The notes below the pieces were generated by a model. It had not been told where the DNA came from and ran no database searches. It saw nothing but the letters and a program-made list of their open reading frames with translations. The position numbers and the translations under genes are program-made. 64,000 nucleotides of DNA, taken from the NCBI RefSeq assembly GCF_056746865.1, contig NZ_CM163382.1. One strand, given 5' to 3'. This document shows, piece by piece, positions 3 through 30,548 of this stretch (the first letter of the stretch is position 1; every line of letters starts with the position of its first letter).

Positions 3-1967
3 GCACAGAGTGAAGAAGAGGACGATTCGCCTGATACGCAAGAGGAAATCCAGACCTTACTGCTGCGTGCCACCCGCATGGATAACAGCGATACCCTGTG
101 GGATCACTTATTCGAAGATGAAAGCCAGCAAACTATATTACCCTCTGCACTGGCGCACTATTTTGCACAACTGCGGGGCGATTCCCCCGGAGATGCTCTC
201 AATCGTCAGCGCGAAGCCTTTATGGCCCGCTGGATTGGATGGGCGATGCAGCAAAATAATGGGGACGTGTTAGTCGTCTGCGGCGGCTGGCATGCTCCGG
301 CACTGGCAAAGATGTGGCGCGAATACACGCAGGAAATTAACACGCCGGAATTGCCCTCGCTGGCAGATGCCGTTACAGGTTGTTATCTCACCCCCTACAG
401 TGAAAAGCGCCTTGATGTGCTGGCAGGATACCTTTCCGGTATGCCTGCCCCGGTCTGGCAAAACTGGTGCTGGCGGTGGGGCTTGCAGCAGGCAGGTGAA
501 CAACTGCTGAAAACGGTTCTTACCCGTTTGCGCCAGCACAAATTGCCCGCTTCTACCGCTGATATGGCTGCCGCTCATCTGCATGCGATGGCGCTGGCAC
601 AGTTGCGCGGTCATACACTACCGTTACGCACTGACTGGCTGGATGCCATAGCAGGCTCGCTGATTAAAGAAGCCTTGAACGCGCCGTTGCCGTGGAGCTA
701 TCGCGGAGTTATTCATCCCGATACCGATCCGATTCTGCTAACGTTGATAGACACATTAGCGGGTGACGGATTCGGTAAACTTGCCCCCTCTACGCCACAG
801 CCGCCTCTGCCAAAAGATGTCACCTGCGAACTGGAACGTACAGGAATCTCTTTTCCGGCGGAGCTTACCTTAAATCGCTTTACCCCCGATGGACTGGCGC
901 AAAGCCAGGTGCTGCATCGGTTGGCAATACTGGAGATTCCCGGCATTGTGCGCCAGCACGGAAGTACACTGACGCTTGCGGGTAACGGTGAAGAACAGTG
1001 GAAATTAACCCAGCCGCTTAGCCAGCATGCGGCATTAATTGAGGCCGCATGCTTTGGCGCCACACTCCAGGAAGCCGCACGTAATAAATTAGAAGCCGAT
1101 ATGCTGGACGCGGGTGGAATCGGCAGTATCACCACATGTCTTAGCCAGGCGGCGTTAGCGGGTCTGGCGTCCTTCAGTCAACAATTACTGGAGCAACTTA
1201 CATTATTAATCGCCCAGGAAAATCAGTTTGCCGAAATGGGCCAGGCGCTGGAAGTGCTATATGCCTTATGGCGGTTGGATGAAATTAGCGGTATGCAAGG
1301 CGCGCAGATATTACAAACGACATTATGCGCGGCCATCGATCGCACACTCTGGCTGTGTGAATCCAACGGCAGACCGGAGGAAAAGGAGTTTCACGCTCAC
1401 CTGCATAGCTGGCAGGCGCTTTGCCATATCCTGCGCGATCTACATAGCGGCGTTAATTTACCCGGCGTTTCGCTTTCTGCGGCGGTGGCCTTACTGGAGC
1501 GCTGCAGTCAGGCGGTTCATGCCCCGGCACTGGATCGCGGCGCGGCTCTTGGCGCACTGATGCGTCTGGAACATCCCAACGCCAGTGCCGAAGCGGCGCT
1601 GACGATGCTGGCGCAATTATCCCCGGCACAATCCGGCGAGGCGCTGCACGGTTTGCTGGCGCTGGCCCGCCATCAACTGGCCTGTCAGCCGGCATTTATC
1701 GCCGGTTTCAGTAGTCATTTAAATCAACTGAGTGATGCCGATTTTATTAACGCCCTGCCCGATTTACGCGCGGCGATGGCCTGGCTACCGCCACGAGAAC
1801 GCGGGACGCTGGCGCATCAGGTGCTTGAGCATTACCAGCTCGCACAGCTTCCCGTTTCAGCGCTGCAAATGCCGTTGCATTGTCCACCGCAAGCCATTGC
1901 ACATCATCAACAACTCGAACAGCAGGCACTGGGATCGCTGCAACACTGGGGAGTTTTCCATGTCTGA
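3..1967 (+). CDS. yehM: YehM-like protein, 5' partial (reading frame is open from the window edge; the N-terminal portion lies upstream)
   Basis: Long ORF with no stop from position 3 to 1967; its stop overlaps the yehP start (ATGTCTGA at 1960-1967); synteny with yehP/yehQ. Confidence 0.75.
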   Translation, partial: AQSEEEDDSPDTQEEIQTLLLRATRMDNSDTLWDHLFEDESQQTILPSALAHYFAQLRGDSPGDALNRQREAFMARWIGWAMQQNNGDVLVVCGGWHAPALAKMWREYTQEINTPELPSLADAVTGCYLTPYSEKRLDVLAGYLSGMPAPVWQNWCWRWGLQQAGEQLLKTVLTRLRQHKLPASTADMAAAHLHAMALAQLRGHTLPLRTDWLDAIAGSLIKEALNAPLPWSYRGVIHPDTDPILLTLIDTLAGDGFGKLAPSTPQPPLPKDVTCELERTGISFPAELTLNRFTPDGLAQSQVLHRLAILEIPGIVRQHGSTLTLAGNGEEQWKLTQPLSQHAALIEAACFGATLQEAARNKLEADMLDAGGIGSITTCLSQAALAGLASFSQQLLEQLTLLIAQENQFAEMGQALEVLYALWRLDEISGMQGAQILQTTLCAAIDRTLWLCESNGRPEEKEFHAHLHSWQALCHILRDLHSGVNLPGVSLSAAVALLERCSQAVHAPALDRGAALGALMRLEHPNASAEAALTMLAQLSPAQSGEALHGLLALARHQLACQPAFIAGFSSHLNQLSDADFINALPDLRAAMAWLPPRERGTLAHQVLEHYQLAQLPVSALQMPLHCPPQAIAHHQQLEQQALGSLQHWGVFHV

Positions 1968-6957: not shown

Positions 6958-8639
6958 GCCTCGTCCCTCCATGGTAGTCGTAACGTTATTCGGGTGTAAC
7001 AATCAGGCTCACAGGCGACGCTTATCCCATAGTCATCGCCAAACCGTTCACGTAAACGCTTATCCACCAGATTCATCCCCAGCCCACTGGCATTGGTTAC
7101 CGGTTGATACAAACCGGCATTGTCTTCGATCTCCAGCATCAAATGTTGCCCCTCACGTCGGGCGCTGATCGCCACTCGCCCTGTATCCAGCAGTTGTGAT
7201 GTCCCATGTTTAATGGCGTTTTCCACTATCGGTTGCAGGGTAAACGCGGGCAATTGCTGCTGGGATAATTCTTGCGGAATAGCAATATTGACCTGCAACC
7301 GCGACTGGAAGCGCGCCTTTTCAATTTGCAGATAAGCGTTCACATGTTCAATTTCGTCGGCGAGAGTAACAAACTCCGAAGGCCGCTTTAAGTTTTTGCG
7401 GAAAAAAGTGGAAAGATACTGCACCAGCTGGCTGGCCTGTTCGCTGTCGCGGCGGATCACCGCTTTAATGGTGTTAAGCGCATTAAACAAAAAATGGGGG
7501 TTCACCTGGGCGTGAAGCAGTTTGATCTCTGACTGGGTGAGCATCGCTTTTTGCCGCTCATATTGCCCGGCGAGGATCTGCGCCGAAAGCAGTTGCGCAA
7601 TCCCCTCACCCAGCGTGCGATTGATTGAACTGAATAAACGGTTTTTGGCTTCATACAATTTGATGGTACCCATCACCCGCTGATTTTCACCACGCAACGG
7701 AATTACCAGCGTCGACCCCAGTTTGCATTGCGGATGCAAAGAGCAACGATAAGGTACTTCGTTGCCATCAGCGTAGACCACTTCACCGGTTTCAATCGCT
7801 TTTAAGGTGTAAGTCGAAGAAATCGGTTTGCCGGGTAAATGGTGATCGTCACCAATTCCGGTAAAGGCCAGCAATTTCTCTCGATCGGTAATCGCGACTG
7901 CACCAATATCCAGCTCCTGATACAGCACCTGTGCCACTTTCATGCTGTTCACTTCGTTAAACCCCTGGCGCAAAATGCCTTCCGTCGAGGCAGCCACTTT
8001 TAGCGCAGTGGCAGAAAAAGCCGAAGTGTATTTTTCAAACATCGCGCGTTTATCGAGCAATATACGCATAAACAGCGCCGCGCCGACGGTATTGGTGACC
8101 ATCATTGGCGCAGCAATATTACTCACCAGACGCACCGCATCTTCATAAGGTCGGGCGATTGCCAGGATGATCAACATTTGCACCATTTCAGCGACGAACG
8201 TGACGGCACCGGCGGTAATGGGGTTAAAGACTTTATCAGTGCGCCCGCGACGGATCAGGATGCTGTGTACCAGGCCGCCGAGCAACCCTTCAACGATGGT
8301 CGAGATCATGCAACTTAGCGCGGTCATGCCCCCCATCGAATATCGATGTAACCCGCCGGTCAGACCAACCAGCCCACCGACGACCGGACCGCCGAGTAAG
8401 CCGCCCATTACCGCGCCTATCGCACGGGTATTGGCAATAGAATCGTCAATGTGCAACCCAAACCAGGTGCCCATGATGCAGAAGATGGAAAAGACGATGT
8501 AGCAGAGAAATTTATGCGGCAGACGAACCGTGACCTGCATTAACGGTATGAATAATGGCGTTTTACTCATTAACCACGCAATGACTAAAAAAACGCACAT
8601 CTGCTGAAGCAGCAGCAACACCAGATTAAAATCGTACAT
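6954..8639 (-). CDS. btsS: LytS-type sensor histidine kinase
   Basis: 561-aa ORF with multi-TM N-terminus and H-box region ([10 protein letters not shown]); coupled to btsR. Confidence 0.85.
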
Positions 8640-25766: not shown

Positions 25767-27762
<1,996 letters not shown>

Positions 27763-27924
27763 TATTTTCTCTTTTCTGTTAATTATTGAGAATAATTATT
27801 ACTTCACTCAATAAGCTGCGGATATAACATTCTGAACCGCAGCTATTTGTGAATCCTTTCACAGTTTAAATTTCCCCACGCGCATAGCCTTAATATCAGC
27901 ACGCAATATTTATACTCTAAATAA

Positions 27925-28050
27925 TTCAAGTTGCAGGAAGGCGACAAGTGAGTGAGTCCCCAGGAGCTTACATAAGTAAGTGACTGGGGTGAGCGAACGC
28001 AGACGCAGCACATGCAACTTGAAGTATGACGAGTATATTTAGCGTTCGCC
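27925..28050. repeat. ERIC/IRU (enterobacterial repetitive intergenic consensus) element upstream of preT
   Basis: Contains GTGAGTCCCCAGGAGCTTACATAAGTAAGTGACTGGGGTGAGCG, which matches the ERIC core as I recall it. Confidence 0.8.
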
Positions 28051-28080
28051 TTAATTACTCATAGCATTAAGGAAGATCAC

Positions 28081-29319
28081 ATGCCGCAACAAAATTATCT
28101 GGATGAACTCACTCCGGCTTTTACACCGTTACTGGCGATTAAAGAAGCCTCTCGCTGCTTATTATGTCACGACGCTCCCTGTAGTCAGGCTTGCCCGGCA
28201 CAGACCGATCCGGGGAAATTTATTCGCTCAATCTACTTTCGTAATTTTAAAGGCGCTGCCGAGACAATTCGTGAAAATAATGCCCTCGGTGCCGTTTGTG
28301 CCAGAGTGTGCCCGACGGAGAAATTATGCCAAAGCGGTTGTACCCGTGCCGGTGTTGATACTCCCATTGATATCGGCCGCTTACAGCGTTTTGTTACTGA
28401 TTTTGAACAACAAACTGGGATGGAAATTTATCAGCCCGGTACTAAAACGCTCGGCAAAGTCGCCATTATTGGCGCAGGTCCTGCCGGATTGCAGGCCAGT
28501 GTGACGCTGACAAACCAGGGTTATGACGTCACGATCTATGAGAAAGAAGCACAACCCGGTGGCTGGTTGCGTAACGGCATTCCGCAATTCCGGTTACCGC
28601 AATCAGTACTGGATGCAGAAATCGCCCGTATTGAAAAAATGGGCGTGACCATTAAGTGCAATAACGAAATCGGTAAAACACTCACCCTGGAGCAGCTGAA
28701 AGCGGAAAACCGCGCGGTACTGGTCACCGTGGGGTTATCTAGCGGTTCCGGGCTACCACTGTTTGAGCATAGCGACGTTGAGATTGCCGTCGACTTCTTG
28801 CAACGTGCACGACAGGCGCAAGGCGATATCAGCATTCCACAAAGCGCATTAATTATCGGCGGCGGTGATGTCGCGATGGACGTAGCCAGCACGCTGAAAG
28901 TTCTCGGCTGTCAGGCGGTAACTTGCGTAGCGCGTGAAGAGTTAGATGAGTTTCCGGCAAGCGAAAAAGAGTTTGCCAGCGCTCGGGAGCTGGGCGTTTC
29001 GATCATCGATGGATTCACGCCAGTAGCCGTGGAAGGCAATAAAGTCACGTTTAAGCATGTACGGTTACCGGGCGAACTGACGATGGCGGCAGATAAAATT
29101 ATTCTCGCCGTCGGTCAGCATGCCAGACTGGATGCCTTTGCGGAGTTAGAGCCGCAGCGTAACACCATCAAAACACAAAATTATCAGACCCGCGATCCGC
29201 AAGTCTTTGCTGCTGGCGATATTGTTGAGGGTGACAAAACCGTGGTCTATGCAGTGAAAACCGGGAAAGAAGCCGCCGGGGCGATTCATCACTATTTAGA
29301 GGGAGCTTGCTCATGTTAA
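28081..29319 (+). CDS. preT: NAD-dependent dihydropyrimidine dehydrogenase subunit PreT
   Basis: 412-aa ORF with Fe-S Cys cluster and GAGPAG dinucleotide motif. Confidence 0.9.
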
Positions 29320-30548
29320 CGAAAGATCTTTCGATTACTTTTTGCGGCGTGAAGTTTCCCAACCCGTTCTGCCTCTCTTCTTCGCCGGTAGGCAACTGCT
29401 ATGAGATGTGTGCCAAAGCCTACGACACAGGCTGGGGTGGCGTGGTGTTTAAAACGATCGGTTTTTTTATCGCCAACGAAGTCTCGCCGCGTTTTGATCA
29501 TCTGGTGAAAGAAGATACCGGTTTTATCGGCTTCAAAAATATGGAGCAGATTGCTGAACATCCGTTGGAAGAGAATCTGGCCGCCCTGCGTCGGCTGAAG
29601 GAAGATTACCCGGACAAAGTATTGATCGCTTCGATCATGGGGGAAAATGAGCAGCAATGGGAGGAGCTGGCGCGCCTGGTGCAAGAAGCTGGCGCGGATA
29701 TGATCGAGTGTAACTTCTCCTGTCCGCAAATGACTTCTCATGCGATGGGTAGCGATGTCGGGCAAAGCCCGGAGCTGGTAGAAAAATATTGTCGGGCAGT
29801 AAAACGTGGTTCCACGCTGCCAATGCTGGCGAAGATGACGCCGAATATCGGTGATATGTGCGAAGTGGCGCTGGCGGCGAAGCGCGGCGGCGCAGATGGC
29901 ATTGCGGCGATTAACACCGTTAAATCAATCACCAATATCGATCTTAATCAGAAAATTGGTATGCCGATCGTTAACGGTAAATCGAGTATTTCCGGTTATT
30001 CCGGTAAAGCAGTGAAACCGATCGCCCTGCGCTTTATTCAGCAAATGCGCACCCATCCAGAACTGCGCGATTTCCCGATCAGCGGTATCGGCGGCATTGA
30101 AACCTGGGAGGATGCGGCGGAGTTTTTATTGCTCGGCGCAGCAACGTTACAGGTGACCACCGGCATTATGCAGTACGGGTATCGGATAGTGGAAGATATG
30201 GCGAGCGGGTTGTCGCATTATCTCGCCGATCAGGGATTTGATTCGTTGCAGGAGATGGTAGGTCTGGCGAATAACAATATTGTTCCGGCGGAAGATTTAG
30301 ACCGCAGTTATATTGTCTATCCCCGTATCAATCTCGATAAATGTGTTGGCTGTGGACGCTGTTATATTTCCTGTTACGACGGCGGTCACCAGGCGATGGA
30401 ATGGAGCGAGAAAACACGCACGCCGCATTGTAATACCGAGAAATGCGTGGGTTGTCTGCTTTGTGGTCACGTCTGCCCGGTGGGTTGTATTGAGCTTGGG
30501 GAAGTGAAGTTTAAGAAGGGAGAGAAAGAACACTCTGTAACGTTGTAA
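29313..30548 (+). CDS. preA: NAD-dependent dihydropyrimidine dehydrogenase subunit PreA
   Basis: 411-aa ORF overlapping preT by 7 nt; C-terminal 4Fe-4S ferredoxin motifs ([23 protein letters not shown]). Confidence 0.9.

Follow-up and report, generated by a model that had tools for sequence, protein, structure and literature searches.

The leader of the preTA operon of Escherichia coli is the site of an insertion polymorphism, in which a complete ERIC element entered with duplication of a TA dinucleotide. The element belongs to the ERIC/IRU family by every criterion that can be tested, and, judging from the arrangement of regulatory motifs upstream of it, it is very probably part of the 5' leader of preT. 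Its occupancy varies between strains, a property that was not visible in the single DNA sequence on which the original prediction was made. The reading favoured here, with somewhat better than even confidence, is that E. coli tolerates this ERIC as a passenger that affects the level of preTA mRNA modestly or not at all. An influence of the element on preTA expression is an unproven hypothesis, and we do not think that it acts as a dedicated regulator of the operon.

The ERIC element of the yeiS-preT spacer

The analysis concerned a stretch of 64,000 nucleotides of the E. coli chromosome (contig NZ_CM163382.1 of assembly GCF_056746865.1), referred to here as the window. The genes cdd, sanA, yeiS, preT and preA follow one another in it, and mglC is convergent with them on the opposite strand. 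The entire intergenic region between yeiS and preT comprises 318 bp (27763-28080) and holds one full ERIC copy; the features of this region are listed in Table 1. It had been described beforehand as AT-rich, which is borne out by a GC content of 39%, or 34.6% with the ERIC left out, against 51.7% across the window. A hairpin behind the yeiS stop codon, with a GCTGCGG/CCGCAGC stem and a 15-nt loop (-15.7 kcal/mol, z = -4.2), may, according to its predicted fold, serve as the terminator of sanA-yeiS. Another palindrome, GC-rich and REP-like, lies between cdd and sanA (26652-26689); its match to naRNA4 (RF02564) is partial and, at 31.4 bits, falls short of the threshold of 59.5.

Table 1. Features of the yeiS-preT region, in window coordinates
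Feature	Position	Strand	Evidence
yeiS coding sequence (DUF2542), upstream neighbour	27523-27762	+	ORF list; RefSeq annotation of identical or near-identical loci
Hairpin just 3' of the yeiS stop, adjoining the CRP site; candidate yeiS terminator	27809-27849	+	Inverted repeat; fold
CRP site core TGTGAatccttTCACA, centre 27855.5	27848-27863	+	Perfect TGTGA-N6-TCACA match
Putative -10 hexamer TAGCCT of a CRP-dependent preT promoter	27885-27890	+	Conservation
Predicted preT start; CRP centre at -41.5/-42.5, class II geometry	27897-27898	+	Geometry and conservation
ERIC (IRU) element, 127 bp including the flanking TA duplications	27911-28037	+ (consensus-orientation strand is the preT sense strand)	Repeats, core, copies, filled/empty comparison
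Left terminal inverted repeat, including the left TA (27911-27912)	27911-27935	+	Inverted repeat; TA from the EDL933 and K-12 empty sites
Conserved central core and apical hairpin with the ERIC1R and ERIC2 primer sites	27952-27995	+	Core count, primer match, inverted repeat
Right terminal inverted repeat, including the right TA (28036-28037); followed by TTTAGCGTT	28013-28037	+	
Palindrome CCTTAAT...ATTAAGG overlapping the preT Shine-Dalgarno sequence AAGGAAG (28069-28075)	28049-28075	+	Cross-genus invariance
preT coding sequence (NAD-dependent dihydropyrimidine dehydrogenase subunit), followed by preA	28081-29319	+	

ERIC elements, also designated IRU (RU-1), are repeats of the Enterobacteriaceae (Sharples & Lloyd 1990; Hulton, Higgins & Sharp 1991; Wilson & Sharp 2006). 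The presence of a full copy upstream of preT, as claimed in the original prediction, is confirmed by its size, terminal inverted repeats, core, multi-copy identity and TA duplication. The element is an imperfect palindrome whose 25-nt terminal inverted repeats are 84% complementary; without the flanking TA duplications, the ERIC proper covers 123 bp (27913-28035). Its 32-nt core, CCCCAGGAGCTTACATAAGTAAGTGACTGGGG (27958-27989), lies in the apical hairpin and is unique in the window, with a chance expectation of 0.00 matches in shuffled sequences. Of the two primer sequences, ERIC2 is present without mismatch at 27974-27995 and ERIC1R with 1 mismatch at 27952-27973. The earlier placement of the core at about 27948-27995 was thus accurate.

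Per genome, the 127-bp element has 11 BLAST places in the median and 20 at most, and it is found in 5425 of the 5426 complete E. coli genomes. The preT copy matches those in the intergenic regions pgk-fbaA and ybhJ-ybhI at 121-124 of 127 positions (95-98%). It resembles the other members of the family in being a 127-bp imperfect palindrome with the same conserved core, in its intergenic position, TA duplication, copy number and strain-variable occupancy, and also in having size variants at the preT locus of other strains, either enlarged by an internal insert of about 70-78 bp or shortened by a deletion inside the element. Nothing structural sets it apart; the difference is that it is absent from K-12, O157:H7 and ST131. 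As to the family's location in transcribed intergenic regions, the intergenic position is observed directly, and transcription is suggested by the class II geometry of a CRP-dependent promoter together with a weak start in K-12. Strain-specific ERIC sites have a precedent, since PMC10969869 credits 14 sites beyond K-12 to Wilson & Sharp (2006). A full-text literature search on yeiT (preT) found no paper tying this gene to ERIC.

The sense-strand RNA of the element is predicted to fold into one long hairpin (-53 kcal/mol, z = -8.1), and the antisense strand also folds into a single long hairpin, of -43.1 kcal/mol. An Rfam scan of positions 26500-29500 at a permissive threshold returned no ERIC family. 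The only Rfam family matching the element was RF02818 V_AS5 (Vibrio RNA AS5), aligned in full length to 27910-28033 with 47.9 bits (E = 1e-8). This Vibrio RNA is evidently ERIC-like, and membership of the preT element in V_AS5 was rejected, the score being half of the gathering threshold of 96. The PGAP annotation of E. coli genomes contains nothing at the element.

Two observations on coding potential can be added. A 56-codon ATG open reading frame runs across the ERIC on the minus strand (27843-28013). Open reading frames occur inside ERICs (PMC2229807), and this one, full of repeat-derived sequence and with no support found for it, was treated as spurious, probably a by-product of the repeat. 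In-frame read-through of the ERIC as the source of N-terminally extended PreT entries was also ruled out by several in-frame stops; the long entries stem from other start-codon choices or from rearrangements.

A presence/absence polymorphism and its older history

Both states of the site are defined by an alignment of the window with K-12, EDL933, O8:H8 and A30. The empty site reads ATATT-TA-TTTAGCG and the filled one ATATT-TA[TACTC..GAGTA]TA-TTTAGCG, a net gain of 125 bp. In K-12 MG1655, the yeiS-preT spacer is 193 bp long and contains no ERIC, and the site is likewise empty in O157:H7 EDL933, O8:H8, strain A30 and ST131 isolates. The flanks of the empty EDL933 site are identical to those of the window at 156 of 156 positions, so that the two alleles differ by a single insertion event. 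In BL21(DE3), ATCC 8739 and strain 042 the best ERIC match sits at another locus, which implies that they do not carry the preT copy.

The frequency of the insertion was estimated with a left-junction probe, scored at a coverage of at least 80%. The probe was covered in 2190 of the 5426 complete genomes (40%), and an independent 1-kb survey, in which about 12 of 29 evenly spaced sampled ranks were filled, agrees with this value. Both alleles are common, with about 60% of E. coli genomes having an empty site, about 36% the canonical ERIC and about 4% a form that is 78 bp longer. Carriers include O26, O111:H8, O91:H21 and O18ac:H14 strains. The junction of the long form occurs in 232 genomes, which are counted within the 2190. 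In this allele, a hairpin-rich 78-bp segment is nested in the ERIC after GAGCGA (positions 798-875 of the locus in E. coli AR_0151, equivalent to an insertion after window position 27996); it contains three or four small GC-rich hairpins, and the predicted fold of the long form reaches -91 kcal/mol. The longer allele represents the known 'long ERIC' class. Similar long ERICs were seen at other loci in about 400 further genomes. A different insertion was noted in E. coli S1-ZIM-01-A, in which an IS1 lies inside the 5' end of preT, just after the equivalent of window position 28081, and the annotated preT is shortened; apart from the IS1, this strain is 100% identical to the window across 1 kb.

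Beyond these E. coli strains, four Escherichia loci came to light when species-representative genomes were scanned with a DNA pattern. In E. albertii, the identical spot is occupied by an ERIC (locus positions 7937-8063), with 98 of 127 positions identical to the window copy and 135 of 156 in the flanks. A divergent lineage labelled E. coli E69 retains about 73 bp of an internally deleted ERIC (locus positions 1784-1860, minus strand), which is still hairpin-forming. In Escherichia sp. E1V33 and E. whittamii the site is empty and has a K-12-type flank. The E. albertii ERIC, at 23% divergence (77% identity), keeps its hairpin (-55.9 kcal/mol). Across all copies, 98.8% of pair cells are paired, and 4 compensatory pairs are present, all from the E. 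albertii copy. This compensation extends to the outermost stem, where TATACTC/GAGTATA is replaced by TTTACCC/GGGTAAA. Such retention of the hairpin could reflect selection on structure at the preT locus, and it could equally reflect a different palindromic source copy.

Two histories of the site are conceivable: an ancient insertion followed by repeated clean loss, and recurrent insertion of different source copies into a favoured TA. Because the preT ERIC of E. coli hardly differs from the ERICs elsewhere in this species, a separate insertion of more recent date is favoured. Single-nucleotide differences in the flanks, over 491 aligned columns, are too few to place the EDL933-type empty alleles within the filled ones. 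The spacer itself falls into two haplotypes in E. coli, with deep divergence between them. The K-12 type, which agrees with the window type at 133 of 156 positions, is about as distant from it as E. albertii is, and it also occurs in E. whittamii and Escherichia sp. E1V33. The spacer of strain A30 looks recombinant.

The predicted preT promoter and the probable place of the ERIC in the leader

The preT promoter was approached by aligning syntenic upstream regions from Escherichia, Citrobacter freundii, C. amalonaticus, Pluralibacter lignolyticus and one further enterobacterium. The CRP site is perfect in Citrobacter, Pluralibacter and the other Escherichia. The hexamer TAGCCT is invariant and stands exactly 21 nt past the CRP core in all 7 aligned taxa, with the intervening 21 nt not conserved. 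It retains the three critical -10 positions (TAnnnT), and an invariant AG follows at 27898-27899, 8-9 nt past the hexamer. These features point to a class II CRP-activated promoter with a preT start at about 27897/8, which would sit 7-8 nt past the putative -10 hexamer. A scan for sigma-70 and terminator consensus sequences called no plus-strand promoter or terminator in the intergenic region, so it is by conservation, and not by consensus, that the -10 hexamer is assigned. A missing sigma-70 consensus match is what is expected of an activator-dependent promoter. Salmonella enterica has a PreT/PreA pair that is 77% identical to that of E. coli and lies beside a pertactin-type autotransporter gene, with no yeiS. 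The Salmonella PreT-like protein was dropped from the assessment of promoter conservation because of this non-syntenic context.

In published data from K-12, the same CRP site is listed for preTA, preT rises about 4.7-fold with cAMP, and its relative quantity in a cyaA mutant was 7.1 and 2.3 with 1 mM cAMP (PMC5772556). Additionally, yeiT is listed among the CRP targets and was recovered by genomic SELEX as well (PMC3105977). For yeiT, a single published start was found in K-12, a site with 2 reads located inside yeiS, at position 2231827 of NC_000913.2 (Kim 2012, PMC3415461). It corresponds to window position ~27728 and lies 228 nt upstream of the K-12 preT ATG, upstream of the ERIC position. 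This start suggests read-through or an internal promoter that feeds the preT leader. The Cappable-seq supplements gave no coordinates near the predicted preT start, and the remaining literature found on yeiT, which reports a weak SELEX peak for sigma-28 within the gene and lists it among differentially expressed genes, is uninformative for the leader.

Between the CRP core and the ERIC there are 47 nt (27863 to 27911), and 43 nt separate the end of the element from the ATG. With a start at about 27897/8, the target TA would be +14/+15, and the element would be co-transcribed from about +14 to about +141; the leader, otherwise about 59 nt long, would reach about 184 nt. The element entered the only leader stretch that varies in sequence and length across genera, one rich in indels, and the sequences of the CRP site, the putative promoter and the palindrome at the ribosome binding site are untouched. 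The claim that the ERIC lies within the preT leader thus agrees with the best promoter assignment that the sequence allows, namely the CRP core followed after 21 nt by the invariant TAGCCT. Under every plausible promoter the element would be transcribed. A start downstream of 28050, which the original prediction had named as the outcome against it, has no sequence support and is unlikely, the predicted start and the 2-read K-12 start both lying upstream of the ERIC.

Downstream of the element, the palindrome overlapping the Shine-Dalgarno sequence is invariant from Escherichia to Citrobacter and Pluralibacter, whereas the surrounding leader varies. It is weak as a hairpin (-4.8 kcal/mol, z = -1.1) and could be a translational operator, or a target of a protein or an sRNA. 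The fold of the leader was modelled over 27897-28120 in the filled form and with the 125 bp removed. The ERIC takes on the same fold there as it does in isolation, as an autonomous domain, and the predicted unpaired probability with and without it is 0.365 and 0.364 for the Shine-Dalgarno sequence and 0.767 and 0.764 for the AUG.

Possible effects on preTA expression

The view of the ERIC as a tolerated passenger follows from three observations: about 60% of genomes do without it, K-12 has an empty site and yet CRP-dependent expression, and the insertion occupies a permissive part of the leader. Its absence from so many E. coli, together with cAMP-CRP activation of preT in K-12, means that it is dispensable for expression of the operon. 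The ERIC inserted with TA duplication into a short preTA leader and is a presence/absence polymorphism. In the scenario proposed here, the whole element would be co-transcribed from the class II CRP-activated promoter, and its RNA would form a self-contained hairpin of about -53 kcal/mol, leaving CRP control and the palindrome at the ribosome binding site unchanged. Any effect would lean towards a mild reduction of the preTA mRNA level, either through partial termination at the hairpin and the UAUUUAG behind it or through processing of the long stem by RNase III or RNase E.

Mechanisms known from related systems provide a measure for such effects. In Yersinia, ribosomes finishing the upstream gene prevent the ERIC from folding and unmask an RNase E site in its right terminal inverted repeat; the ERICs concerned abut or overlap the upstream stop codon, and it is the upstream cistron that is destabilised (De Gregorio 2005, J Bacteriol 187:7945, as related in PMC2229807, PMC3184786 and PMC10969869). 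By these accounts, it is the only experimentally supported ERIC mechanism. The preT copy is a member of the same family, with a TA duplication, a long predicted RNA hairpin and, if the promoter assignment holds, co-transcription with a flanking gene. In contrast to the Yersinia elements, it begins 148 nt past the yeiS stop codon (27762 to 27911), behind a hairpin and a separate putative promoter, in an untranslated 5' leader. It abuts no stop codon, so the Yersinia mechanism does not transfer directly, and a role as a destabiliser of the upstream mRNA was rejected on the same ground. By analogy, the closest counterpart of a MITE in a 5' UTR is the Correia/NEMIS family, found in 5' leaders of Neisseria, whose members also lie between promoter and coding sequence with a TA duplication and give hairpin RNA. 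They belong to an unrelated sequence family, however, and their hairpins are cut by RNase III, which is only conjectural for ERIC RNA. They can also carry promoters and IHF sites, whereas ERIC has no known motifs of such a kind.

A stronger effect than that of a passenger, the chief competing view, would arise if the insertion were a cis-regulatory polymorphism that changes preTA mRNA abundance several-fold, which we consider rather doubtful. RNase III could act on the stem of the terminal inverted repeats, RNase E at the A/U-rich right end, or partial intrinsic termination could occur at the hairpin with its U-rich tail, and the activity of dihydropyrimidine dehydrogenase would not be the same in E. 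coli with and without the ERIC. The position of the element at +14 of the predicted leader speaks for such a role, as do the very stable sense hairpin (-53 kcal/mol, z = -8.1, and -91 kcal/mol in the long form), the sequence UAUUUAGCGUU directly 3' of the stem, and the compensatory changes that preserve pairing in the diverged E. albertii copy. The effect of a stable 125-nt hairpin at +14, with U-rich sequence behind it, could exceed what is assumed here. There are also precedents in that Yersinia ERICs change the levels of co-transcribed mRNAs, according to PMC2229807, PMC3184786 and PMC10969869, and that RNase III acts on Correia elements located in leaders of Neisseria (PMC10969869). However, the Yersinia mechanism needs translating ribosomes that enter the ERIC, which is impossible in a 5' leader, and the predicted accessibility of the Shine-Dalgarno sequence and the AUG is the same with and without the element. 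An A-U rich stem base and a short U-tract make a poor intrinsic terminator, and the scan called none. Both alleles, moreover, persist at high frequency, neither being visibly disfavoured.

Other readings would remove the ERIC from the leader or from the sense RNA altogether. A functional preT promoter downstream of the insertion point, or spanning it, would place the element outside the mRNA; the CRP site would be pushed 125 bp upstream, and catabolite control would be weakened or abolished in carriers. The start at 27897/8 is a predicted one, and in K-12 a -10-like TATTAT just before the insertion point fits class I spacing (-61.5), with a start at the edge of the element. We nevertheless hold this arrangement to be very improbable. 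Conservation of the TATTAT/AATATT stretch does not extend beyond Escherichia, in contrast to the invariant TAGCCT with its class II spacing; a class I start would fall within the first ~7 nt of the ERIC, so that the element would still be transcribed; and the 43 nt between the ERIC and the ATG contain no plausible promoter and are occupied by the conserved palindrome at the ribosome binding site. An action other than through sense leader RNA was also considered, by way of a junction or outward promoter, an antisense transcript, the 56-codon minus-strand open reading frame (27843-28013), or a role at the DNA level as a cruciform, a recombination hot spot or a binding site for nucleoid proteins. 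The left junction does create TATACT, a 5/6 match to TATAAT, but no acceptable -35 sequence lies 16-18 nt from it, and the scan gives no plus-strand promoter. The open reading frame that crosses the ERIC is unsupported and probably a by-product of the repeat. With ERICs at the same spot in E. albertii and E69 and an IS1 in the region of one strain, the site may be prone to insertion; ERIC elements, for their part, have no reported DNA motif function (PMC2229807). Taken as a whole, this group of explanations appears extremely improbable, and the passenger reading is retained.

Beyond its place in the leader, the element may bear on a drug-related function of the operon. The dihydropyrimidine dehydrogenase encoded by preTA is the bacterial enzyme by which 5-fluorouracil is inactivated in the gut, and the work on this activity was carried out in K-12, that is, with the empty allele (bioRxiv 10.1101/820084; PMC11185696). 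Neither of these two reports mentions the promoter or the upstream sequence. In about 40% of sequenced E. coli, a further 125 bp of structured leader (203 bp in the long form) lies between the CRP promoter and the start codon. ERIC is a textbook element whose strain-specific sites are already documented, and the added value of the present finding is local to preTA.

A bolder proposition, which we regard as unlikely, is that the ERIC and its 78-bp-longer variant form a common natural cis-regulatory allele of preTA, in which a structured module of 125-203 nt at +14 would shift dihydropyrimidine dehydrogenase expression, and that its occupancy of the site in E. albertii and the divergent lineage would reflect long-term maintenance of the structure and not chance re-insertion. 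If such an allele existed, there would be a heritable difference between its carriers, ~40% of strains, and K-12-like strains in the reduction of uracil and thymine and in the inactivation of 5-fluorouracil. If the insertion affects expression, the presence of the genes alone would mispredict the 5-fluorouracil-inactivating capacity of a patient's E. coli, and a simple PCR length polymorphism would be informative. If it has no effect, the preT ERIC would provide a clean natural case of a MITE accommodated by the single permissive segment of a leader in which promoter and ribosome binding site are conserved.
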